Of a stretch of DNA of 64,000 bases, positions 35,902 to 54,913 are shown in pieces (position 1 is the stretch's first letter; each line of letters opens with the position of its first letter). The translations under genes were made by a program, and so were the position numbers. The notes beneath the pieces are model-generated. The model was not told the origin of the DNA. It worked only from the letters and a program-made list of their open reading frames with translations, and did not search any database. Origin of the DNA: a bacterium (GTDB taxonomy: Bacteria > UBA8248). Where the stretch lies: NCBI GenBank assembly GCA_965199855.1, contig OZ241326.1:1824001-1888000 (forward strand), read 5' to 3'.

Positions 35902-36300
35902 ATGGGCAACCTTCGACTCATCGCCGGCCTGATTCTCGCGCTGGCCATCACGAGCTTCGGCGTCGTCAACATGGAGCCGGTGACGGTCGCCTACTATCGG
36001 GGCAGCGTCCGCCTGCCCCTTTTCTACGTTCTGCTCGCGGTCTTCGCGGGCGGATTCATGGCGGCGTGGTTCGGCGGGGCGTTCGACAGGCTGAGGTTCA
36101 GGAGCGAAATCGGAAAACTGAAGCGCGAGGCGAGAACGCTGAAGATCAGCCTGGACGAGGCGCGCGAGAAGGGCGGCAGGCTGCTCGCGGCCGAGAATCC
36201 GGCGCCCGAAGAAGCCGCGGCCGCCCCGGATGAGCGCGCGCCGCAAGCCGCCCCCGCGTCCCGGACGAGCGCGCCCCCCCGCGAACCAAAGGCGGAGTAG
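35902..36300 (+). CDS. LapA-family membrane protein
   Basis: TM ending F..N...V.V, LPL motif, second TM, then coiled coil; LapA-domain architecture. Confidence 0.7.
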   Translation: MGNLRLIAGLILALAITSFGVVNMEPVTVAYYRGSVRLPLFYVLLAVFAGGFMAAWFGGAFDRLRFRSEIGKLKREARTLKISLDEAREKGGRLLAAENPAPEEAAAAPDERAPQAAPASRTSAPPREPKAE

Positions 36301-36302
36301 GA

Positions 36303-38984
36303 ATGTCCCTCCCCGAAAGCGTTCTCCACCCGGCGGGAAAGAAGGAAAAAAGCGCGCCCCGGCCCAGGGGGCGCGGCCCGTCCCCGGCGATGCGGCAGTA
36401 TCTGGAGATGAAAAGGCGCTATCCGGACGCGCTGCTGTTTTTTCAGATGGGCGATTTTTTCGAGATGTTCTACGAGGACGCGGAGCGCGGGGCGAAGGCC
36501 CTGGAGCTCGCGCTGACGTCGCGCCAGAGCGACGCGCAGGGGCCCATCCCCATGTGCGGCGTGCCCTGCCATTCGGCGTCCTCCTACTGCGGGCGGCTCC
36601 TGGAGGCGGGCTACAAGGTCGCCGTATGCGAGCAGGTGGAGGACGCGGGAGAAAGCAGGGGAATCGTGAAGCGCGAGGTGACCCGCGTTCTGACCCCGGG
36701 CACCTCAATCGCCGACCTCGAGCTGCTGGACAGCAAGGAATCCCAGTATCTGGCGGGGATCGTCGCGTCGGCGGGAGAAGAGGGCGCGCTCTGGGGGATG
36801 GCGTGGCTCGACAGTTCGACCGGCGAGTTTTGCGCGACCCAGGCGGCGGGCGAGTTCGCCGTGACGCTCATCGCCAACCAGCTGGAAAGGATCGCTCCCC
36901 GCGAACTCATCCTGCCGGATGATTTTTCCCCCTCCGATGAACTGAAAAGCCGGATAGCGGAACTGGGAATTCACGTCGAGAAAAGGCGCGCCGACGCTTT
37001 TCAGGCGCCGCGTGACTTCCGGGACACGGACGCGGCGCTTCCCGATGAGGCGAGCGCGCTGGCGAATCCGGCGGCGGCGAGCGCGGCCATGGGCGTCATG
37101 GGGTATCTCAGGGAAAACCAGCCCGGCGACTTTCCCCATCTCAAGCCCGTGTCCTTCTCGCGCCTTTCGGACGCGATGATTCTCGACGCGGCCACCCTGC
37201 GAAACCTGGAGATCGTCCATTCGGCCGCGGATCGAGGAAAAAAAGGCTCCCTGCTCGGCCTGCTGGACGAGACGCTCACGGGCATGGGGGGGCGTCTGCT
37301 CAAAAAATGGCTGCTCTCGCCCCTGATTCAAAAGGAGCCCGTTGATTATCGCGCCGCGGCCGTGGGGGAACTCGTGGATGGTTCTGAAATCCGCGAGGCG
37401 CTGAAAAGCGCCATCGAGCCGATGCAGGACATCGAGCGCCTCCTCGGCCGCGTGGGCTCCCGGACCGCGAACGCCAGGGACCTGGCGGGGCTGGGCGCCT
37501 CCCTGGCGATGCTTCCGCAGGTGCGGGAGGCCATAGGCGAGGCGGAGGCGGAGCTGTTCCGCGGCGTGTCTTCGGAGTGGGACTCTCTCGAGGACGCGGC
37601 GGCGGAGCTCCTGAGCGCGCTCGTGGACGCGCCGCCCGCCTCGATTCGGGAGGGAGGCATTTTTCGCGATGCCTACGACCCCGAGCTCGCCCGCTTGCGA
37701 AAAGCGCAGAGCGAAGGCGACGCGTGGCTGAAAAGCTATGAAAGCGGGGAGAAGGAAAGAACCGGCCTGCCCCTCAAGATAGGCTTCAACCGCGTTTTCG
37801 GATACTACCTCGAAATCTCCAGGCGCTTCAGCGACAAGGCGCCCCCGGAATACGCGCGCAAGCAGACCCTCGTCTCCGCCGAGCGATACGTTACCCCCGA
37901 GCTCAAGCGGATGGAGGAGGACATTCTCGGGGCGGAGGAGAAGGCCCATCAGCTCGAATTCATGCTCTTCGGACGCCTGAGAGCGAAAATAGCGAAGCAG
38001 GCGAAGCGCATCCTCGCCGCCGCGGAAAGGATAGCCCTTCTCGACGCCGTCCTGTCGCTGGCGGCCGTCGCGCGCAGGCGCGGCTACGTCCGCCCGGAAA
38101 TAACGAACGCTCCGCATCTCGAGATCATCGAGGGGAGGCATCCCGTCATGGAGGCGGAGCGCCCCGACCTTCCTTTCGTGCCGAACGATTTGTCCATCGG
38201 CGGCGAGCGGCAGATACTCATCATCACGGGGCCGAACATGGCCGGAAAATCCACCTATCTGCGCCAGGCGGCGCTCATCGTCCTGATGGCGCAAATCGGC
38301 AGCTTCGTTCCCGCCAGGAGCGCGAAGGTCGGCCTGGTGGACAGGGTATTCACCAGGGTCGGCGCGCATGATCGGCTTCTGGAGGGGCGGAGCACCTTCA
38401 TGGTGGAGATGGTGGAGACGGCCGCCATACTGCGGGAGGCGACGCCGAGAAGCTTCATCGCGCTGGACGAGGTGGGACGCGGCACGAGCACGTATGACGG
38501 CGTGAGCATCGCGTGGTCGATTGTGGAGTATCTCCACAGCGAGGCCGCCCACAGGGCGAGAACCCTGTTCGCGACCCATTACCATGAACTGGCCGAGCTT
38601 GCGAAAGACCTCGAGCGGGTGAAGAACCTGACGGTGGAAGTCCGCGAATGGGGCGATGAAATCGTGTTTCTGCGAAAAGTGGCCGAGGGCAGCTGCGACA
38701 GGAGCTACGGCATTCACGTGGGGAGGCTGGCGGGGCTTCCCGACGCGGTCATAGAGCGCGCGAGGGTTTTGCTCTCCGGGTTCGAGAGCGCGGAGACCAA
38801 GGCTCATTCCGGCGGGGAGGACGGCGGTTTTCCGGAAAGCGCCCGCCGAAACGGACAGCTGCCCCTGTTCTCGCGCGAGAAATCGCAGGTCGAAAAAGCG
38901 CTTGAAAGTCTCGACCCGGACGCCATGACCCCGCGCCAGGCGCTGGAGGCCCTCTATCAGCTCAAAAAGGGCGCGGGAGAATAG
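36303..38984 (+). CDS. mutS: DNA mismatch repair protein MutS
   Basis: SPAMRQY, FQMGDFFEMF, ITGPNMAGKST, STFMVEM, DEVGRGTS, ATHYHEL, RSYGIHV. Confidence 0.98.
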   Translation: MSLPESVLHPAGKKEKSAPRPRGRGPSPAMRQYLEMKRRYPDALLFFQMGDFFEMFYEDAERGAKALELALTSRQSDAQGPIPMCGVPCHSASSYCGRLLEAGYKVAVCEQVEDAGESRGIVKREVTRVLTPGTSIADLELLDSKESQYLAGIVASAGEEGALWGMAWLDSSTGEFCATQAAGEFAVTLIANQLERIAPRELILPDDFSPSDELKSRIAELGIHVEKRRADAFQAPRDFRDTDAALPDEASALANPAAASAAMGVMGYLRENQPGDFPHLKPVSFSRLSDAMILDAATLRNLEIVHSAADRGKKGSLLGLLDETLTGMGGRLLKKWLLSPLIQKEPVDYRAAAVGELVDGSEIREALKSAIEPMQDIERLLGRVGSRTANARDLAGLGASLAMLPQVREAIGEAEAELFRGVSSEWDSLEDAAAELLSALVDAPPASIREGGIFRDAYDPELARLRKAQSEGDAWLKSYESGEKERTGLPLKIGFNRVFGYYLEISRRFSDKAPPEYARKQTLVSAERYVTPELKRMEEDILGAEEKAHQLEFMLFGRLRAKIAKQAKRILAAAERIALLDAVLSLAAVARRRGYVRPEITNAPHLEIIEGRHPVMEAERPDLPFVPNDLSIGGERQILIITGPNMAGKSTYLRQAALIVLMAQIGSFVPARSAKVGLVDRVFTRVGAHDRLLEGRSTFMVEMVETAAILREATPRSFIALDEVGRGTSTYDGVSIAWSIVEYLHSEAAHRARTLFATHYHELAELAKDLERVKNLTVEVREWGDEIVFLRKVAEGSCDRSYGIHVGRLAGLPDAVIERARVLLSGFESAETKAHSGGEDGGFPESARRNGQLPLFSREKSQVEKALESLDPDAMTPRQALEALYQLKKGAGE

Positions 38985-39015
38985 GAAGCGCGCGGCGGGA
39001 GAATGAAAAAGGGTA

Positions 39016-39044
39016 TTGAGGCCTTTCGTTTTATCGGCTAGAAT
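39016..39044 (+). promoter_or_regulatory. sigma70 promoter for the DUF4390-ntrY-ntrX::lpxC operon
   Basis: TTGAGG-N17-TAGAAT, 25 nt upstream of ATG 39070 (GGAG SD). Confidence 0.6.
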
Positions 39045-39069
39045 GGAACTTAAAGCCCGGGGAGAACTT

Positions 39070-39675
39070 ATGTTCTCTATGATTCGGAAAACACTTGTTC
39101 TGGGAAAATCGACCGCGGCGCTCTGCGCGCTGTTTCTTCTGGCGGGGCCGGCGCTCCCCGCCCACGGCGCGCAGGGAGGAATTCGCGTGGAAGACATTGT
39201 CGTCGTCGAGAAAAACGGGGAGTTGCTCGTTTTTGGTTCGTTCCGGGGGGCGTTTTCCCAGAAACTTCTGGAAGCCATCCACAGCGGCGTGCCGGCCAGG
39301 TTCATCTTCGACGTGAGCCTGCTGCGCTCCCGCAGGCTCATTCGCGACGCGGCGGTCTTCTCGCGGCAGCTGCATTATCAGGTAACATACAGCGCCTTGA
39401 AGAAAACCTATACTTTCCTTCTGGGCGAGGGGGCGAAAAGCATCGAGAAGAAGGTGACGAAGAGCAGGGATGAAATGATTGACTGGATGCGCGAGCTGAA
39501 CGGCGCGCCCATCGCTTCCGGCAAGGCGCTGGCCCCGAGCGAGCGGTATTACGTCGGAATCAGGGCGCGGCTGGGTTCCGTCGAGCTGGTATTCCCCTTT
39601 AATTACCTGCTCGATTTCCTGACGAAAAAATCCGACTGGAGCTATTCGCCTCCCTTCGGCGTGAAAGGAATGTGA
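39070..39675 (+). CDS. DUF4390-like exported protein
   Basis: Signal peptide (..PAHGA), EAIHSGVP..F.F, Y..L...Y, L.P..RYY, LVFPF; occupies the usual slot upstream of ntrY. Confidence 0.7.
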   Translation: MFSMIRKTLVLGKSTAALCALFLLAGPALPAHGAQGGIRVEDIVVVEKNGELLVFGSFRGAFSQKLLEAIHSGVPARFIFDVSLLRSRRLIRDAAVFSRQLHYQVTYSALKKTYTFLLGEGAKSIEKKVTKSRDEMIDWMRELNGAPIASGKALAPSERYYVGIRARLGSVELVFPFNYLLDFLTKKSDWSYSPPFGVKGM

Positions 39676-41942
39676 ACTTGGACGCGGCGCGCCCCGGCTA
39701 TGGGAAATCCGCTTCGAGGCGGCGAAAGACCGTTCTGCGCTCTTTCATCGGGCTGATTTGCGCCGCCGCGCTTTCCCTCACGGCCTGGATTTCCTTCAAG
39801 GAGGTCGAGCCGGGAATTCCTCTCCTGAACAACATCGTCGTATTCGCGCTCGTGAACCTGAGCGTCATTCTGCTCCTGGTGGTCGTTCTCCTCGTGGCGA
39901 AGAACCTGATGCGCCTGTATTACGAGAGAAACCTGGCCGCCGGCGGTTCGCGCCTTCAGCTGAGGCTCGTGGCGGCTTTCGTCGGATTCGCGCTCATTCC
40001 GATCGCGGCTCTTTTCGTGGTGGCGAGCGGCCTGATCAACCAGAGCTTCAACGCCTTGTTCAGCGTGAAGGTGGAGAGGGCGCTGAAAGGGTCGTTCGAG
40101 GTGGCCCAAACGTATTACCGCGAACTGGAGAAAGACGCGCTCTCCAACGCGAACCGGCTCGCGCTCATGCTGGCGAATGCGCGCCCCGAAGCGAGAGAGA
40201 ACCCCGGGACGATCGGGAAAATGCTGGAGGCGGAGAGAAGGAATCTGGGGGCCGACCTCATCCAGCTCTACGACCGGGAGCGGAGGGAAATCGCATCGGC
40301 GAGGCGTCCGGCGCTGGCGAAGGCCGCGGCGTTTTCGCCCCTGGTGGGATACATGGATCAGGTGATCGACGGAGCCTCGCTGTCGAGCGTGGAGAACTGG
40401 GAAAAGGGCGACGCCATCCACGGCGTGGCTCCCCTGAAGATTGAAAAGAAGGTGGCGGGGTTCGTCGTCGTATCCAAATACCTGTCCGACCGGCTCGTCG
40501 ACGAGGTAAAGGCCATATCGGATTCCTTCGTGGACTATAAGGCCATGGAGCTCTCCAGGACGCCGCTCAAGGCGAGCTACATCATCACGTTTCTGGTGTT
40601 CGCGCTGCTCATCTTGTTCGCCGCGATATGGCTTGGCCTCTACCTCGCTCGCGGAATCACGGTTCCCATCGAAAAACTGGCGGAAGGCACCCGGGCGGTG
40701 TCGGCCGGCGATCTCGATCACCGCGTGGACGCGCGGGCGGACGGCGAGGTGGGCATTCTGGTCGAAGCGTTCAACGACATGACGGCGGAATTGTCGACCA
40801 ACAGGGAGAAAATCGAAGAATCCGCCGAAACCCTGCGCCGCTCCAGCGTGGAGATCGACCAGAGGCGCAGATACATGGAGGCGATGCTCGAGAACATCGG
40901 CGCCGGCGTGATATCGATCGACCGGCGAGGGCGGGTCGCCATCTTCAACAAGGCGGCCGGAGACATTCTGGACATCAGGCCGGAAAACGCGCTTGGGCGA
41001 TCGTTCGGCGATGTTTTCGAGAGAGGCCATCTCGATCCCGTTCGCAAGCTGATGCGCTCCATGAGAAGCCGCGAGCGTGAAAGCGCCTCGGCGCAGGTGG
41101 AGGTGCTGGTTCGCGACCGTCTGCTGACGCTGCGCGCCAGCCTGACGCTGCTCCGGAGCGCGGACGCCGGCAGGCTCGGCGCCGTCATCGCGTTCGACGA
41201 CATGACGGTGCTGATGCGCGCCCAGAAGGCGGCGGCGTGGCAGGAGGCGGCGCGGGGCATCGCGCACGAGATCAAGAATCCCCTGACGCCGATTCAGCTC
41301 TCCGCGCAGAGAATGCGAAGGAAATTTGAAAGCGGCGCCTGCGATTTTCCCGACGTGTTCGAAGCCTGCACCGACACCATCGTCAGCCAGGTGCAGGGCC
41401 TGGAGGAAATGGTGAACGAGTTCAGCCGCTTCGCGCGGATGCCGGAGCCGAGGCTGAGGCTTTGCGAGTTCGAGCCTCTCATCGAGGAAGTTGCGAATCT
41501 GTATCGCGGCGGGAGGGAAAGCGCGCAACTTTCCGTTCAGCTTCCCGCCGAGAGCGCGACCATCCTGGCGGACCCGGAGCAGCTGCGGCGCGTGTTCATC
41601 AATTTGCTGGAAAACGCCTTCGAGGCGCAGGAGAGCGAGGGCAAGATAGACCTTCGGGCGTGGATCGATCAGGAGAGGAACGTGGCGGTCGTTGAAGTCG
41701 CCGACCAGGGCGCGGGCGTATCCGAAGGCGTGAAGGACCATATATTCTCGCCCTATTTTTCCACGAAAAACAGGGGGTCCGGCCTGGGTCTGGCCATTTC
41801 CCACCGCGTCGTGTCCGATCATCACGGAACCCTGGGCCTTCGGGACAACCACCCGAGGGGTTCCGTTTTCCGGGTGACGCTGCCGCTGTCGCCCGCCGCG
41901 GACGCCGCGCCCGAGAGGCGAAGGACGGCCGCCATTGGATAA
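39672..41942 (+). CDS. ntrY: NtrY-type sensor histidine kinase (TM, periplasmic, HAMP, PAS, HisKA, HATPase)
   Basis: Three N-terminal TMs, HAMP (PIEKL..GT..V..GDL, EVG.L..AFN.M), PAS, AWQEAARGIAHEIKNPLTPIQLSAQR, INLLENA, DQGAG, PYFSTK, GSGLGL. Confidence 0.9.
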   Translation: MNLDAARPGYGKSASRRRKTVLRSFIGLICAAALSLTAWISFKEVEPGIPLLNNIVVFALVNLSVILLLVVVLLVAKNLMRLYYERNLAAGGSRLQLRLVAAFVGFALIPIAALFVVASGLINQSFNALFSVKVERALKGSFEVAQTYYRELEKDALSNANRLALMLANARPEARENPGTIGKMLEAERRNLGADLIQLYDRERREIASARRPALAKAAAFSPLVGYMDQVIDGASLSSVENWEKGDAIHGVAPLKIEKKVAGFVVVSKYLSDRLVDEVKAISDSFVDYKAMELSRTPLKASYIITFLVFALLILFAAIWLGLYLARGITVPIEKLAEGTRAVSAGDLDHRVDARADGEVGILVEAFNDMTAELSTNREKIEESAETLRRSSVEIDQRRRYMEAMLENIGAGVISIDRRGRVAIFNKAAGDILDIRPENALGRSFGDVFERGHLDPVRKLMRSMRSRERESASAQVEVLVRDRLLTLRASLTLLRSADAGRLGAVIAFDDMTVLMRAQKAAAWQEAARGIAHEIKNPLTPIQLSAQRMRRKFESGACDFPDVFEACTDTIVSQVQGLEEMVNEFSRFARMPEPRLRLCEFEPLIEEVANLYRGGRESAQLSVQLPAESATILADPEQLRRVFINLLENAFEAQESEGKIDLRAWIDQERNVAVVEVADQGAGVSEGVKDHIFSPYFSTKNRGSGLGLAISHRVVSDHHGTLGLRDNHPRGSVFRVTLPLSPAADAAPERRRTAAIG

Positions 41943-44070
41943 GGGATGCGTCCTCATCGTCGATGACGAGCGTGAGATACTCGCGAGCCTGGAAGGCGTC
42001 CTGGGCGACGAGGGCTATCGCGTGGAGCGGGCCGAATCCGGCGAAATGGCGCTTCAGATGGTTCGCTCCGAAGCGCCGGACGTGGTTCTGGTGGACGTGT
42101 GGATGCCGGGAATCGACGGAATCAAGACCCTTCAGGCGGTGAAGGAGTCCAACGCGGACGTCGAGGTCGTCGTGATGTCGGGGCACGGCAGCATCGACGC
42201 CGCCGTGACCGCGACGAAGCTGGGCGCCTTCCACTTCATCGAAAAGCCCCTTTCCATCGACTCGGTCCTGAACGTGGTCGATTCCGCCGTTCAGACGAGA
42301 AGAGCGAAGGAATTCAGGGCGAATGATATCGTTGACGCGATGCTCGACGGCGCCGGCAGGAAGATTCAGGGGATCAGGAAAGCCGTCAGGAGAGCGGCGA
42401 AAGGCTCCGGCGCCCTGGTGATCTCGGGCGAAAAGGGAACCGGCAAGCGCGTCGTCGCCAAGGCGATTCACATGAGCGGCGCCGCGAAAAAAGAAGAGTT
42501 CAGACCCGTTCATTGCGGCTCTTTGCCGCCGGCTTCGGAGAAGGGGGAATGGGAAAAAGAACTGGAGCGCCTGCTTCCCGCCGCTTTTCGGGGGACGGCG
42601 TATCTGGATGGCCTGGAGCAGCTGCCCGCCAGGGAGCGGGAGAGACTCATCAGGCGCGTCCTGGCGCGCGCGAACGATTCGCTGCGCCTGATAGCGTCCT
42701 TTGACCACGTGGGCATCCCGAAAGACAGGAGCGCCGCGCAGAGACTGGCTGAAAAAACAGGCGCCGACCTGATATATCTGCCTCCCCTGCGCGAGCGCAG
42801 GGAGGACATTTCGCTGCTGGCCGAGAAATTTCTGGACGAGCGCGCCGAGGAGGCCGGAGACGAGAAGGAGTTTTCCGAAGAGGTCATGGCGATTCTCGAG
42901 GAATACGACTGGCCCGGCAACGTCGCCGAACTGAAGGGGACGGTGACCAGCGCGGCGCGCTCCTCGCCCGGGGTGGAGATTCGCATTGATCACCTGCCCT
43001 CCTCGATGCGCGAAGTTCCGCATCCCGAAGCGGAGGCGTCGGAGAGCGGAGCCGCCTCCCGCTTCCATATCGAGAGAACCCGGTGGGAGCGGCAGTATCT
43101 CTCCTTCCATCTGGAGCGGTGGGGCTGGGACGTCAAAAAGACGGCGCGCGCGGTGGGCGTGTCCGAGGCCGCCCTGAAGCGAAAAATAAAGGCATACGGG
43201 ATAAAGCGCGCGCCGCCGTCGCCGCCGGAGAATCCGGATCGGGCGAAGCAGCGAACGATATCGAAAAGCGTCGTGCTGCATGGCCGGGGGCTTCACTCCG
43301 GGCGGAAAACCGGGTTGATTCTGGAGCCCATGCCGCCGGGGAGCGGGATACGGTTCGGCGGCCTGACGAGCTCCGAGACCATGGAGGCGCGCGTCGATTT
43401 CGTGGACGGGACGAATCACGCGACGAATCTGCGCAGCGGGGCGATGACGGCGCGGACGATAGAGCATCTCATGAGCGCGCTGCACGCCTACGGGATAAGC
43501 AACCTCCTCGTCAAAATCGGCGGGGAGGTGCCCGCCCTGGATGGTTCGGCGGTGGAATTCTGCCGTTTGCTCGAAGAGGCCGGGATAGCGGCGCAAGAAG
43601 AAGGGCGCGAGGAATTGCGCGTTGACGAACCCTGCCAGGTGGGCGAGCCGGGCGCCCCGGAAGGCCATATTCGCATCGAGCCCGCGGATTCTTTCTCGAT
43701 CTCCTATCTCATCGACTACCCGGAGCCGATCGGAAAGCAATCCTATCTGTATGAGCATGAAAGCGCGCCGGGCTTTCGGGAGGAAATCGCGCCCGCCCGC
43801 ACCTTCGGCTTCGCCTCGGAGCTGGGGGAGCTCGAGAAGATGGGGCTGGCCGAAGGCGGCCGCTGGGACAACGTGATTCTCGTGGACAAGGGGCGCATCC
43901 TGAACACCCCCCTGCGCTTTTCCGACGAGTTCGTCCGCCACAAGATTCTCGACGTGATGGGCGACCTGTATTTGACGGGCCGTCCGATTCGGGGAAAGGT
44001 GACCGCCGAGAGAAGCGGGCATCGGCACAACGTCGCCCTGGTCAGGAAATTGCTGGAGGCCCGGAGCTGA
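41935..44070 (+). CDS. lpxC: Fusion: NtrX-like response regulator (REC, degenerate AAA+, Fis HTH) plus LpxC deacetylase
   Basis: REC D10/D11, D54 (DVWMP), S82, K104; GEKGTGK, LPPLRER, WPGNV; HTH about aa 385-424; LpxC from aa 438: QRT, GLHSG, TIEHLMSAL, EVPALDGSA, ARTFGF, RHKILDVMGDL, SGH. Confidence 0.93.
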   Translation: MDKGCVLIVDDEREILASLEGVLGDEGYRVERAESGEMALQMVRSEAPDVVLVDVWMPGIDGIKTLQAVKESNADVEVVVMSGHGSIDAAVTATKLGAFHFIEKPLSIDSVLNVVDSAVQTRRAKEFRANDIVDAMLDGAGRKIQGIRKAVRRAAKGSGALVISGEKGTGKRVVAKAIHMSGAAKKEEFRPVHCGSLPPASEKGEWEKELERLLPAAFRGTAYLDGLEQLPARERERLIRRVLARANDSLRLIASFDHVGIPKDRSAAQRLAEKTGADLIYLPPLRERREDISLLAEKFLDERAEEAGDEKEFSEEVMAILEEYDWPGNVAELKGTVTSAARSSPGVEIRIDHLPSSMREVPHPEAEASESGAASRFHIERTRWERQYLSFHLERWGWDVKKTARAVGVSEAALKRKIKAYGIKRAPPSPPENPDRAKQRTISKSVVLHGRGLHSGRKTGLILEPMPPGSGIRFGGLTSSETMEARVDFVDGTNHATNLRSGAMTARTIEHLMSALHAYGISNLLVKIGGEVPALDGSAVEFCRLLEEAGIAAQEEGREELRVDEPCQVGEPGAPEGHIRIEPADSFSISYLIDYPEPIGKQSYLYEHESAPGFREEIAPARTFGFASELGELEKMGLAEGGRWDNVILVDKGRILNTPLRFSDEFVRHKILDVMGDLYLTGRPIRGKVTAERSGHRHNVALVRKLLEARS

Positions 44071-44121
44071 TTTCGGCTTCGCCCCGCGCGCCGCCTCCGT
44101 CCCCCTCGCTGAGCGTCTTCC

Positions 44122-45174
44122 TTGAGCAATCATCCTCTGACATACCGCGGCGCGGGCGTGGACGTGGAGGCGGGCGAGCGCTTCGTTCGCTCCATCGCGC
44201 GCGCGGTGAAGTCCACGCACGAGAGCCAGGGCGGGCGCGTCCTGAAGGGGACGGCGGACTTCGCCGGTCTGTTCCGCCTGGGCGGCGGCTATGAGGACCC
44301 CGTTCTCGTTTCAGGGACGGACGGCGTCGGCACGAAACTGCTCCTGGCCCAGCAGCTGAACCGCCATGACTCCGTCGGGGTCGATCTGGTGGCCATGTGC
44401 GTCAACGACATTCTGACCGCGGGAGCGGAGCCTCTTTTCTTCCTGGACTACGTTGCGGCGGGCCGGATGGAGCAGGGGGCGTTGGCGGACGTCGTATCCG
44501 GCGTCGCCCGGGGATGCCGCGAGGCCGGCTGCGCCCTCATCGGCGGCGAGACGGCGGAGATGCCCGATCTGTATGGTCCCGGCGCGTATGATCTCGCCGG
44601 GTTCTCGGTGGGCGTGGTCGAGCGAAGAAGCCTGGAAGGCGCGGCGCGCGCGGAGGCTGGCGACGCGATTCTCGGCCTTCCCTCGTCCGGCGCCCACAGC
44701 AACGGATATTCCCTGCTGCGCAGGATATTGGACTCGAAGGCGAAGCGGGACGCCGCGTCCCGAAGACTCGGCGCCCCCGTCGAGGACGTCCTCCTGGAGC
44801 CTACGCGCATTTACGCCAGGGGCGCCGGCGCCGTTCGGGGAGACGGGGCGGTTTGCGGCGCCGCGCACGTCACGGGGGGAGGGCTTCCGGGAAACGTGAG
44901 CCGTCTGATTCCGGATGGCCTGCAAGCCAGGCTGCGTCCCGACCGCTGGCCCCTGCCGCGCGTATTTTCGCTGGCGCAGGAGCTCGGCCCGGTCGAGAGC
45001 GCGGAGATGTATCGCACGTTCAACATGGGGCTGGGCTTCGTCTTTCTCGTGAAGGCGGGGCGGACGGAATTCCTCCTCAAGCGTTTGAAAAACGCGGGCG
45101 AAGAGGCCATGGTTGTCGGCGAGGTCGTGAAAAGACCCAAGGGCGGCCGCTCCGTCGTCATCGAGGGCGCATAG
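44122..45174 (+). CDS. purM: AIR synthetase
   Basis: YRGAGVD, GTDGVGTK, DLVAMCVND, GGETAEMP, SSGAHSNGYS, HVTGGG, EMYRTFNMG. Confidence 0.97.
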   Translation: MSNHPLTYRGAGVDVEAGERFVRSIARAVKSTHESQGGRVLKGTADFAGLFRLGGGYEDPVLVSGTDGVGTKLLLAQQLNRHDSVGVDLVAMCVNDILTAGAEPLFFLDYVAAGRMEQGALADVVSGVARGCREAGCALIGGETAEMPDLYGPGAYDLAGFSVGVVERRSLEGAARAEAGDAILGLPSSGAHSNGYSLLRRILDSKAKRDAASRRLGAPVEDVLLEPTRIYARGAGAVRGDGAVCGAAHVTGGGLPGNVSRLIPDGLQARLRPDRWPLPRVFSLAQELGPVESAEMYRTFNMGLGFVFLVKAGRTEFLLKRLKNAGEEAMVVGEVVKRPKGGRSVVIEGA

Positions 45175-52993: not shown

Positions 52994-54913
52994 TTGAACC
53001 AATTCTACAAGAACCTGGCGCTTTGGCTGATCATCGGCCTGATCATGGTGGGGCTGTTCCAGGCCTTCAACGGCCCGCGCTCGATGGACAGGACGGTCGT
53101 CTACAGCGACTTCCTCAAGGCGGTGGCCGCCGGGCAGGTGAGCGAGGTGGTCGTCCAGGGCGACAACATCCGGGGGCGCTATCTGAGCGGCGCCCCGTTT
53201 CAAACCTACGCCCCCAAGGACCCGAAGCTTATCGACACCCTCCGCGCCAAGGGCGTCCGCATCACGGCGAAGCCCGTGGAGCAGAACGCCTGGTATATGA
53301 GCCTGCTGATGAGCTGGCTGCCGATGCTGCTGATGCTGGGGGTGTGGATTTTCTTCATGCGCCAGATGCAGCTGGGCGGCTCCAAGGCGCTCTCGTTCGG
53401 AAAGAGCAAGGCGCGGATGATGCCCGATTCCGCGAAGAAGAAAATTACGTTCGCGGACGTGGCCGGCATCGAGGAGGCGAAGGAGGAGCTCGAGGAGCTC
53501 GTGGACTTCCTCCGCGATCCGCAGAAATTCACGCGCCTGGGCGCGCGCATTCCGAAGGGCGTTCTCATGGTCGGCCCGCCGGGAACGGGCAAGACCCTGC
53601 TGGCGCGCTCCATCGCGGGCGAGGCGGACGTGCCGTTCTTCTCCATCAGCGGATCGAGCTTCGTGGAGATGTTCGTCGGCGTCGGAGCGTCGAGGGTTCG
53701 CGACCTGTTCGAGCAGGGCAAGTCGAACGCGCCGTGCATCATTTTCATCGACGAGATTGACGCCGTAGGACGGCACCGCGGCGCCGGTCTCGGCGGCGGC
53801 CACGACGAGCGCGAGCAGACGCTCAACCAGCTCCTCGTCGAGATGGACGGCTTCGAGTCGAACGACGGGGTGATTCTGGTGGCGGCGACGAACCGGCCGG
53901 ACGTCCTGGACCCCGCCCTCCTCAGACCGGGCCGCTTCGATCGCCAGATTATCGTCTCCCTGCCGGACATCAAGGGGCGGCTGGCGATTCTGAAGGTGCA
54001 CGCCCAGAAGGTGCCGCTCGCCGAAGCCGCCGATTTGAACCTCATCGCCCGGGGCACGCCGAGGTTCGCGGGCGCCGACCTGGCGAACCTGCTGAACGAG
54101 TCCGCGCTCCTGGCGGCGCGGCGCGGAAAGCGCGCCGTTGAAAACGACGACCTCATGGAGGCGAAGGACAAGGTTCTCATGGGCAAGGAGCGGCGCAGCA
54201 TGGCGCTCAGCGAAAAGGAGAAGAAGAACACGGCCTACCACGAGGCGGGGCACGCCCTCGTCTCGCAGCTCATACCGGGGACGGACCCGGTCGAGAAGGT
54301 GACCATCATTCCGCGGGGCTTTTCGCTGGGAAGCACGTGGTCTTCGCCCGAGGAGGACCGCTACAGCAACGACAAGACGTTTCTGACGAACCAGCTCGCC
54401 TGCCTGATGGGAGGACGCGCGGCGGAGATGCTGGTTTTCGAGGAGCTGACCACGGGGGCGAAGGCCGACATCCAGTCGGCGACCGACCTGGCGAGAAGCA
54501 TGGTCTGCGAATGGGGGATGAGCGAGAAGCTCGGGCCCCTGGCCTACGGCAAGAAGCACGAGCAGATTTTTCTGGGCCGCGAAATCTCCCAGCACAGGGA
54601 CTACAGCGACCACGTGGCCCTGGAGATCGACAGCGAGGTGAAGGGGATGGTCTCCTCGGGCTACGACCGCGCCTACGGGCTGCTCGAGGAGAACCGGGAC
54701 AAGCTCGATTTGCTCGCCGACGCCCTGCTCGAATACGAAACCATCGACCTCAAGGACATCGAGTCCCTGATGGCGACCGGAAAAATCTCCAGAAGCCCGA
54801 AGAGCAAGGACGGGGTCGGCGAGGGGGACGCCCCCGTCTCTCCGCAGCCCGGGAAAGAGCCCCAGGAGGGCTCGCAGGCGTCGCCGCCGGATCTCGCGCC
54901 CGGACAGGCCTGA
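52994..54913 (+). CDS. ftsH: ATP-dependent zinc metalloprotease FtsH
   Basis: Two TMs, [38 protein letters not shown]. Confidence 0.98.

Follow-up and report, generated by a model that had tools for sequence, protein, structure and literature searches.

In the 64,000-nucleotide stretch of bacterial DNA analysed here (the window, in whose numbering all positions are given), the product of one gene is genuinely bifunctional, joining an NtrX-like response regulator to a C-terminal LpxC. The gene closes a translationally coupled cluster, DUF4390(PlrP-like)-NtrY-NtrX::LpxC, and, judging from profile searches, it supplies the cell's sole LpxC in a genome that holds the rest of the lipid A pathway. 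This gene layout suggests that lipid A synthesis may be switched directly by phosphorylation. The best explanation overall, to which we assign a probability of about 0.6, is that phosphorylation of D54 by NtrY would control LpxC in cis.

LpxC commits the cell to the synthesis of lipid A for the outer membrane. As well as being a target for antibiotics, the enzyme has to be kept at a tightly balanced level. Standalone LpxC is controlled by FtsH/LapB/YejM proteolysis and, in P. aeruginosa, by MurA binding. The cluster and the domains of the fusion are as follows.

39016..39675, + strand: DUF4390 (PlrP-like) gene, product with a hydrophobic N-terminal stretch (Pfam PF14334, 5.1e-28, 98 bits)
39672..41942, + strand: NtrY-type sensor histidine kinase (NtrY_N, HAMP, PAS, HisKA, HATPase_c)
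41935..44070, + strand: whole fusion open reading frame, receiver (REC), AAA+ remnant, HTH, linker and LpxC (711 aa plus stop)
41950..42279, + strand: receiver domain, residues 6-115 (Pfam Response_reg PF00072, 1.4e-28, 99.7 bits)
42349..43038, + strand: decayed sigma54-type AAA+ core and lid, residues 139-368 (Pfam, motif alignment)
43087..43197, + strand: Fis-type HTH, residues 385-421 (HTH_8, 22.2 bits, cut-off 22)
43204..43245, + strand: Pro-rich linker, residues 424-437 (short, low model confidence)
43249..44055, + strand: complete LpxC deacetylase domain, residues 439-707 (PF03331, profile 1-267 of 268, 1.3e-82)

A single-frame fusion and its LpxC domain

The fusion frame starts at a TTG codon and has no internal stops. 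A preliminary description of this DNA, made from its letters, had reported an uninterrupted 711-aa frame beside a kinase gene, and both points hold: the domains are complete within a single frame, and the neighbour carries the NtrY-type domain set. The Pfam scan proposed there matched Response_reg, Sigma54_activat, AAA_lid_14, HTH_8 and LpxC. Successive genes overlap end to start, DUF4390 and kinase by 4 nt and kinase and fusion by 8 nt, and profile searches of the whole genome returned a single match each for DUF4390 and NtrY_N, namely the first two genes of this cluster.

The LpxC domain scores far above the thresholds of both PF03331 (277.8 bits, cut-off 27) and the NCBIfam lpxC model TIGR00325 (235.1 bits, cut-off 187.25), and residues 436-707 match solved P. 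aeruginosa LpxC chains (3e-48). In that alignment the EH, HKxxD and GH motifs of the P. aeruginosa enzyme have their counterparts in the fusion; we take EH, the T/F of ARTFGF, HKxxDxxxD and GH to be the metal-ligand and catalytic motifs of LpxC. The complete domain with the zinc-ligand and catalytic residues named earlier is indeed present, with E510, H511, T623, F624, H669, K670, D673, D677 and H696 invariant in 56/56 aligned long forms. A search for a second lpxC in the closed 3.04-Mb, 100%-complete genome found none besides the fused domain, and profile searches located LpxB and LpxD.

Like the standalone enzymes of E. coli, P. aeruginosa and A. aeolicus, the fused LpxC has a full-length deacetylase domain with all motif residues, for which UDP-3-O-acyl-GlcNAc deacetylase activity is predicted. 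It differs from them in its N-terminal response regulator, in its separate clade, in a genome where LapB went undetected, and in having no long C-terminal tail, as the protein stops 4 residues past the domain. In LpxC-FabZ (NF009667), too, LpxC is part of a polypeptide with two functions, but there it is paired with a C-terminal FabA/FabZ dehydratase, which amounts to metabolic coupling, and not with a signalling module at the N-terminus as in the present protein. Pfam found no FabA/FabZ dehydratase domain in the fusion, and NF009667 matched only through its LpxC half (profile 3-220 of 464; 198.9 bits against a cut-off of 465). In a tree, the fused LpxC domains form one clade over several phyla, apart from standalone and FabZ-fused LpxC, with LpxC-FabZ representatives on the other side from the response-regulator fusions.

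A lost stop codon, a frameshift or a mis-assembly could in principle have joined separate ntrX and lpxC genes. We consider this to have a negligible probability, and it is refuted by single frames in relatives, by protein clusters and by contigs that cross the junction. Among 23 genomes of the genus, 20 have the full-length frame, 1 has a short REC-LpxC form and 2 are fragmented; single-frame fusions recur at family, order and class level, as well as in one genome from a different phylum, and the same architecture turns up in over 100 independently sourced protein clusters. That relatives would always encode two genes is therefore false, and the earlier view of an evolved fusion rather than a lost stop is supported. 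Contigs from three other studies run across the junction without indels and differ there only by substitutions, the single indel in them lying at 44100, past the stop codon; the X3 contigs (depth 2) give no coverage of 43140-43327.

Across the phylum, 49 genomes yielded 43 complete LpxC matches, all in frames of at least 432 aa (34 long, 9 short) and none standalone. The preliminary description had left room for existing database entries; such entries do exist, labelled merely 'LpxC' or 'NtrX', and our literature search found no paper describing an NtrX-like/LpxC fusion. This is a real, ancient fusion, and purifying selection acts on it.

The receiver and the decayed regulator body

The receiver is intact, as first described (D10, D11, D54, S82, K104). 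D10, D11, the phospho-acceptor D54 and K104 are invariant in 56/56 aligned long forms; at position 82, 39 of these have S and the other 17 have T. In short and intermediate forms (n=24), D10, D11 and K104 are again invariant and D54 is retained in at least 90%; in the short form P0142, N replaces the phospho-acceptor Asp.

The middle of the protein has fared differently. Its proposed AAA+ origin is borne out by a partial Sigma54_activat match (PF00158, residues 141-240, profile 5-115 of 168, 7.6e-10), by AAA_lid_14 (residues 286-368, 3e-22) and by a retained Walker A motif (GEKGTGKR), but the description needs correcting on activity. Walker B reads YLDG, with Gly instead of Glu, and only 5/56 long forms keep a Glu after the Walker B Asp. 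A GAFTGA-like motif was found in 0/56 aligned long forms, a FREDLY-type arginine-finger motif likewise in 0/56, and, compared with distant family members, 22 residues are missing from the GAFTGA region. The features looked for in a sigma54 enhancer-binding protein (GAFTGA, Walker B DE, arginine finger) are thus missing from the AAA+ part of the fusion. From the lack of GAFTGA and the rarity of the Walker B Glu, we conclude that this middle is ATPase-decayed and unable to contact sigma54.

The Fis-type HTH noted earlier was recovered at the HTH_8 cut-off; scores reach 33 bits in relatives, and the segment can be aligned to the HTH at the C-terminus of Brucella NtrX (5m7n). Behind it, the RAPPSPPENPD linker was located at residues 425-435, in a non-conserved segment with 19% identity among close relatives. 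There is, as had been stated, no Met between the HTH and the LpxC QRT motif; in-frame GTG codons exist in this stretch and nothing points to their use.

Identity among close relatives is 85% for REC, 80% for LpxC and 60% for the AAA+ core, falling among distant relatives to 51%, 53% and 26%, respectively. REC and LpxC are the best-conserved parts of the fusion and the AAA+ core is the least conserved. In G008, of the same genus, and G023, of the same family, AAA+ and HTH have been lost in frame and the synteny reads DUF4390-NtrY-(REC-LpxC)-PurM; evolution retains REC-LpxC beside NtrY upon deletion of the AAA+/HTH middle. The DUF4390 gene lies directly 5' of the kinase gene in L022, G008 and G023, and short REC-LpxC genes in Binataceae and in a delta-proteobacterial MAG are also found downstream of NtrY-type kinases. 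Short forms L026, L027, L032, L034, L040 and L042 and long forms L029 and L030 have no kinase gene directly upstream.

Kinship with NtrYX and PlrSR

The label 'NtrX-like' stands on architecture, kinase context and the best solved match, and falls short on the family model. Residues 6-423 match Brucella NtrX (5m7n) best among solved structures, at 5.5e-52 and 180.4 bits, followed by NtrC1 (3dzd) at 161.7. The protein shows the NtrX arrangement of REC, AAA+ without GAFTGA and Fis HTH behind an NtrY-type kinase, and the DUF4390 gene stands immediately 5' of the kinase gene, as in PlrP-PlrS-PlrR. On the NCBIfam NtrX equivalog model (NF051870), however, it scores 242.1 bits over residues 6-423 against a cut-off of 600 (split into 166.6 and 78.6 bits in a six-frame search) and an NtrC-family regulator without a fusion, encoded at another place in the genome, scores higher (399.4 bits). 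We therefore call it NtrX-like and not an NtrX equivalog.

With NtrYX/PlrSR the cluster shares the order REC, AAA+ without GAFTGA and Fis-type HTH, a kinase with NtrY_N, HAMP and PAS, and, as far as the available portions of the sources describe plrP-plrS, a DUF4390 gene 5' of the kinase gene with a 4-nt overlap. It differs in that the regulator bears a complete C-terminal LpxC, that the FREDL-type motif of Brucella NtrX is absent (0/56) and that the Walker B Glu is mostly gone. The portions of the NtrYX/PlrSR literature covered mention no such fusion. Part of one source describes PlrP as a periplasmic third component of PlrSR/NtrYX (PMC13001219); its effect on the kinase/phosphatase balance is known only through Bordetella genetics.

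Excerpts of earlier work already connect such systems to lpxC. In R. sphaeroides, loss of NtrYX raised lpxC mRNA 8.8-fold (PMC7240162), and a 2025 review, in the section available, summarizes the same NtrYX-lpxC link for C. crescentus and presents the NtrYX links to LpxC as indirect, transcriptional and without LpxC specificity (PMC12444477, section 10). In D. vulgaris, the part of the study covered gives lpxC as the sole DAP-chip target of the response regulator DVU2934, and in S. fumaroxidans lpxC adjoins an operon orthologous to DVU2931/DVU2934 (PMC3333781). As described, DVU2931/DVU2934 resembles our case in being a two-component response regulator dedicated to lpxC, and differs in acting through transcription from separate genes.

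Candidate routes from receiver to LpxC

In the mechanism we propose, NtrY, as a membrane kinase under the influence of the PlrP-like protein, would set the phosphorylation state of D54, and this state would change LpxC output in cis. REC might dock on and undock from the catalytic domain, as in CheB, or might drive dimerization; a layer of transcriptional control may come from the HTH in long forms. Comparative evidence favours such phosphorylation gating, given the invariant receiver quintet, the adjacent NtrY kinase and the survival of REC-LpxC after loss of AAA+/HTH.

Response regulators with enzyme outputs are familiar from the CheB methylesterase, the diguanylate cyclases PleD and WspR, and RpfG. 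They share the plan of receiver, flexible linker and enzyme domain and are likely a working analogy for the short REC-LpxC forms. Here, in contrast, the output would be a Zn-deacetylase from lipid A biosynthesis with no known sequence relationship to their output domains, and the long fusion forms retain a transcription-factor body.

The models define no REC-LpxC interface: in short forms the connection is a long, unconserved, low-confidence linker (residues 133-179), and in the long form the path runs through three flexible segments, with a pTM of 0.55. This speaks against the proposed mechanism, as do the members that have no kinase gene directly upstream, the N in P0142 and the low score on the NtrX model; none of the RNA runs listed contained the locus. 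The undefined interface also fits a constitutively active LpxC, where the fusion would serve co-expression by fixing the regulator:enzyme stoichiometry, or where LpxC would be a 'trigger enzyme' whose substrate or product binding informs a DNA-binding regulator of envelope genes, as alphaproteobacterial NtrX is. The HTH kept by long forms fits this reading, as does the action of NtrX on lpxC at the mRNA level in the studied species, so far as the sources covered describe it. Yet HTH and AAA+ change more quickly in evolution than do REC and LpxC, and lineages that lack both HTH and AAA+ retain an intact receiver-LpxC, some behind NtrY; a receiver left with LpxC as its sole partner is difficult to account for unless it acts on LpxC. 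We regard this reading as unlikely.

Alternatively, the receiver could be a conditional degron or adaptor, so that kinase input would set LpxC abundance through FtsH, Lon or Clp and not the catalytic rate. RssB- and CpdR-type receivers are a precedent for receiver-governed proteolysis, the fused LpxC lacks the long C-terminal tail and an FtsH gene lies in the window at 52994-54913 (profile match). It also counts in favour that the usual LapB/FtsH route is probably missing, since LapB went undetected in the genome by two profiles (PF18073, 0 matches; NF008757, best 32.9 bits against a cut-off of 363). Against it stands that PF18073 is unspecific in six-frame searches, as it matched 10/14 control genomes, including Gram-positives. 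Proteolysis sets LpxC abundance in enterobacteria, and the review section cited above suggests Lon in alphaproteobacteria (PMC12444477, section 10). We judge phospho-dependent proteolysis improbable here.

Whichever route applies, the fusion physically ties a poorly understood NtrX-type two-component family to one specific enzyme, and makes the phospho-control hypothesis directly testable with purified protein; for such work, the naturally occurring REC-LpxC deletions serve as a minimal system of two domains. Within the 49 genomes searched, a whole phylum is without free-standing LpxC. More tentatively, the NtrYX/PlrSR family might at its root be a lipid A homeostat, in which a periplasmic DUF4390 protein and NtrY would sense envelope state and receiver phosphorylation would directly switch LpxC catalysis, within one polypeptide in this phylum and in many Binatota, Acidobacteriota, Thermodesulfobacteriota and Nitrospinota-labelled lineages, and through transcriptional control of lpxC in proteobacteria. 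If true, LpxC would have a third mode of control, one that depends neither on FtsH/LapB proteolysis nor on MurA binding, and the essential role of PlrR~P in Bordetella could be accounted for as well.

A single frame from receiver to LpxC

Pfam detects, in one open reading frame, all the domains that the preliminary description had proposed, namely a receiver, an AAA+-derived middle, a Fis-type helix-turn-helix and LpxC. The receiver and active-site residues named there all lie at their assigned positions in the 711-aa translation.

The fusion gene (window coordinates) and the Pfam domains of its product
41935-44070, (+): one open frame of 711 codons, TTG start, no internal stops
Residues 6-115: Response_reg (REC), 1.4e-28
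Residues 141-240: Sigma54_activat, partial (profile 5-115 of 168), 7.6e-10
Residues 286-368: AAA_lid_14, 3e-22
Residues 385-421: HTH_8, 22.2 bits, at the cut-off of 22
Residues 439-707: LpxC (profile 1-267 of 268), 1.3e-82

E510/H511, H669/K670/D673/D677 and H696, which we take to be the metal ligands and acid/base catalysts, align with the matching motifs of the solved Pseudomonas aeruginosa LpxC, and the protein passes the lpxC equivalog of NCBIfam (235 bits, cut-off 187). The linker between the helix-turn-helix and LpxC is about 12-17 residues long and is unconserved among aligned relatives.

The best solved match to residues 6-423 is Brucella NtrX (5m7n; 180 bits), with NtrC1 at 162 bits. 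The NtrX equivalog of NCBIfam matches end to end, yet at 242 bits the match is well under the cut-off of 600, and the N-terminal body is thus best described as NtrX-like by architecture and context, without NtrX equivalog status. Elsewhere in the host genome (G000:C1:2688410-2689753, minus strand, outside the window), an unfused NtrC-family response regulator reaches 399 bits on the same model, outscoring the N-terminal part of the fusion while also falling below the cut-off.

In an alignment of 56 long forms (REC-AAA+-HTH-LpxC), the receiver quintet is unchanged throughout, with Ser or Thr at position 82, and Walker A (GxxGxGK) is present in 55. The Glu that follows the Walker B Asp is retained in only 5 of the 56 and is Gly in the window protein; GAFTGA-like and FREDLY-like motifs occur in none, and the clade of the window protein carries a 22-residue deletion at the expected GAFTGA site. 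Because GAFTGA and FREDLY are absent and the Walker B Glu is mostly gone, the AAA+ module cannot activate sigma54 and probably lacks ATPase function; it may still bind nucleotide.

The host genome (G000), closed as a single contig of 3,043,534 bases, has a completeness rating of 100%, and a search of it for a second lpxC found none: the fusion is its only LpxC match. LpxB and LpxD are both encoded, and therefore the lipid A pathway exists and relies on the fusion protein, which by inference is essential. Across the genus (23 genomes, the host included), a stop-free full-length match occurs in 20; of the others, G008 carries a short form (REC-LpxC, without AAA+ and HTH), and G003 and G015 have fragmented matches. 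In G015 (C19:33661-35593) the match is broken up over more than one frame, with overlapping segments for query 1-376, 410-644 and another part of LpxC; a frameshift, a deletion within the gene or a faulty assembly of this 8-Mb, 70-contig bin may be the cause. The full-length form is also found in another genus of the same family (G024), in another family of the same order (G026), in 6 of 7 genomes of a second family of the class and, outside the phylum, in one genome (G036) at 40% identity; each of these genomes with the full-length form has a single LpxC match.

A search of every phylum genome with a completeness of 80% or more (49 genomes) returned 43 complete LpxC matches, every one in a stop-to-stop frame of at least 432 aa. 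Thirty-four of these frames span 646-755 aa and nine span 432-538 aa, the receiver being Pfam-confirmed in two of the nine (G008 and G023). Five genomes have partial LpxC matches alone, where a contig stops or the frame is split, and one has no match; no free-standing LpxC was found among the 49.

The junction region (43150-43300), singled out at the outset as the place where an artefact would lie, is crossed without an indel by contigs from three other metagenome runs: a 7,579-nt contig from X9 that covers 41800-44200 with 39 substitutions, one from X4 covering 42519-44200 and one from X13 covering 42991-43845. Contigs from a further run, X3, leave 43140-43327 uncovered at depth 2. The only indel in the contigs of other runs lies at 44100, 3' of the stop codon; it is a 1-base deletion shared by the X4 and X9 contigs, which come from two other studies, in the intergenic stretch that separates the fusion from purM. 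These contigs carry many substitutions along the gene that look synonymous and point to related strains; a stop-creating change in such strains could in principle lie among 24 contig substitutions that were not itemised.

A lost stop codon or a mis-assembly would explain a single fused gene, and both are ruled out by the recurring single frames, by more than 100 protein clusters of the same architecture and by the bridging independent contigs. The proposal of an evolved fusion thus holds, with a single frame recurring across genus, family and class and in another phylum. The fusion is real, ancient and widespread.

Architectures and the conserved unit

The clusters sharing the architecture, recovered by a word-indexed search, derive from metagenome-assembled genomes (MAGs) named Nitrospinae/Nitrospinota, Tectomicrobia, Thermodesulfobacteriota, Schekmanbacteria and Proteobacteria. 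The preliminary description had allowed for existing database entries, and such entries exist, labelled only LpxC or NtrX. When the LpxC domain alone was compared with 1.84 billion representatives, nearly every match above about 225 bits had an N-terminal extension, and standalone LpxC started lower. In all, the family runs to several hundred members, at least 120 of them from the word-indexed search, and the LpxC-domain comparison yielded about 45 representatives at 50% identity. The 120 best matches to the short form have MAG labels only. Pfam scans of 53 representatives gave three architectures: REC-AAA+-(HTH)-LpxC (about 680-736 aa), REC-HTH-LpxC (P0132, 491 aa; P0149, 505 aa) and REC-LpxC (about 419-461 aa). 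Among named genome contigs, long forms occur in a Nitrospinaceae MAG and in Desulfomonile, and short forms in Thermoanaerobaculia, Terriglobia, Binataceae and others; five loci with no single frame across the match (L028, L031, L038, L077 and L085) were left out of all counts.

A quick IQ-TREE search under LG+G4, run on 95 LpxC domains with alternate standalone rows dropped (45 of 91 kept), places all 40 fused domains together in a 44-row set (SH-aLRT 94), which also includes three fragments and one apparently standalone protein and lies within a starred 46-row set (96). Standalone and FabZ-fused LpxC occupy the opposite side (96). Starred branches put some short or intermediate forms within clades of long ones (P0142, clade support 100*; P0132 together with P0136, 100*), and the topology fits a single origin followed by repeated loss of the AAA+/HTH middle. 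Short forms also occupy the base of the fused clade, with weak support (87), and the tree by itself is therefore compatible with change in either direction, from long to short or from short to long. Within the fused clade, beside short fused forms, P0167 (283 aa; support 83) is an apparently standalone LpxC that could stem from a later fission, from a gene call cut short or from a contig end.

D10, D11, K104 and the LpxC catalytic residues are unchanged in all 24 short or intermediate forms, and the phospho-acceptor D54 is present in all but P0142. This 454-aa REC-LpxC protein, placed within a long-form clade, has Asn at the acceptor position and intact LpxC residues, and is possibly a family variant with a pseudo-receiver. 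Identity to the window protein is 85% for REC, 80% for LpxC and 60% for the AAA+ core in close relatives, and 51%, 53% and 26%, respectively, in distant ones. Because REC and LpxC are the best conserved parts and the short forms keep them, these comparisons identify receiver plus LpxC, often along with NtrY, as the unit under selection.

Adjacent kinase and gene neighbourhood

The fusion is the third gene of a set in which DUF4390 and NtrY_N, each with a single match in the genome, lie directly 5' of it.

Genes directly 5' of the fusion (window coordinates)
39016-39675, (+): DUF4390 gene, overlapping the kinase gene by 4 nt
39672-41942, (+): NtrY-type kinase (NtrY_N, HAMP, PAS, HisKA, HATPase_c), overlapping the fusion by 8 nt

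According to PMC13001219 (2026, J Bacteriol), the DUF4390 protein PlrP is the periplasmic third component of PlrSR, an NtrYX-family system of Bordetella; PlrP holds back the phosphatase activity of the kinase, and phosphorylated PlrR is essential in vitro. The plrP and plrS genes overlap by 4 bp, as the DUF4390 and kinase genes do here, and the term lpxC is absent from that paper.

The order MutS, DUF4390, NtrY, fusion, PurM is kept in G008 (same genus) and G023 (same family), where the fusion consists of REC and LpxC alone (458 aa in the former, no more than 497 aa in the latter) and is the one LpxC match. A short REC-LpxC also lies directly 3' of an NtrY-type kinase in two Binataceae MAGs and one delta-proteobacterial MAG. 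A kinase immediately upstream is absent at six other short-form and two long-form loci, and one long form follows a hybrid kinase gene.

Envelope genes are abundant around the fusion in the window (MurJ, a LapA-domain protein, LolA, RseP and FtsH). Together with housekeeping genes they are dense on one strand between 29139 and 54913, the genes there being MurJ, a XerC/D-type recombinase, PhoH, 7TM-HD, YbeY, the LapA-domain protein, MutS, PurM, PurN, a LolA-domain protein, RseP, IspG, ProS, TilS and FtsH. The LapA-domain gene (35902-36300, plus strand) lies directly 5' of mutS, without a LapB partner.

A scan of 38800-44300 gave one promoter-like site (0.4 expected) and nine terminator-like sites (5.7 expected), none of them usable. 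No RNA run with 41800-44200 was found among 19 rows, from eight studies, containing any part of the stretch; runs with at least half of the sampled words of 41800-44200 carry sponge or marine metagenome labels or coded organism names.

Proposed phospho-control of LpxC

CheB-type gating and receiver-driven dimerisation are known modes of receiver output and provide a working analogy here: the NtrY kinase together with the PlrP-like protein would set D54 phosphorylation, and the phosphorylation state would change LpxC output in cis. Of the readings considered, such a direct control of LpxC by phosphorylation has the best support, with a probability of roughly 0.6.

Monomer models are confident for the individual domains, and the geometry between domains is not readable in either the long form (pLDDT 83.4, pTM 0.55; low-confidence hinges at 130-132, 362-374 and 427-434) or the short form (pLDDT 85.0, pTM 0.72; linker 133-179 disordered). 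A complex prediction of REC (1-128) with LpxC (436-711), made from a 56-row alignment and without controls, scored 0.01 against a mark of 0.32, which gives no verdict either way. A rival account leaves out catalytic gating and sees in the fusion a means of co-expression or a trigger enzyme. Phospho-dependent proteolysis of the fusion is another; it gains some plausibility because LapB was not detected genome-wide (no PF18073 match; best NF008757 score 32.9 bits against a cut-off of 363) and because the fused LpxC has no C-terminal tail. FtsH is encoded at 52994-54913.

A 2025 review in JBC on how lipid A is regulated (PMC12444477) describes inhibition of lpxC transcription by NtrYX in R. sphaeroides and C. 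crescentus; the words 'fused' and 'fusion' are absent from it. An mBio 2020 study (PMC7240162) gives an 8.8-fold rise of lpxC mRNA in an ntrYX deletion, an NtrX site at lpxC being absent. Rajeev et al. 2011 (PMC3333781) give lpxC as the only target of the D. vulgaris regulator DVU2934 and place lpxC next to the orthologous operon in S. fumaroxidans; the names NtrX and NtrY are not used there.

Searches of the open full-text literature brought up no account of LpxC fused to a receiver or to NtrX; a subscription journal or a supplement may mention one, perhaps where the output domains of response regulators are surveyed. Undescribed in the searchable literature, the receiver-LpxC fusion belongs with two known kinds, response regulators with enzymatic outputs and NtrYX systems, and its putative phospho-control is readily testable.
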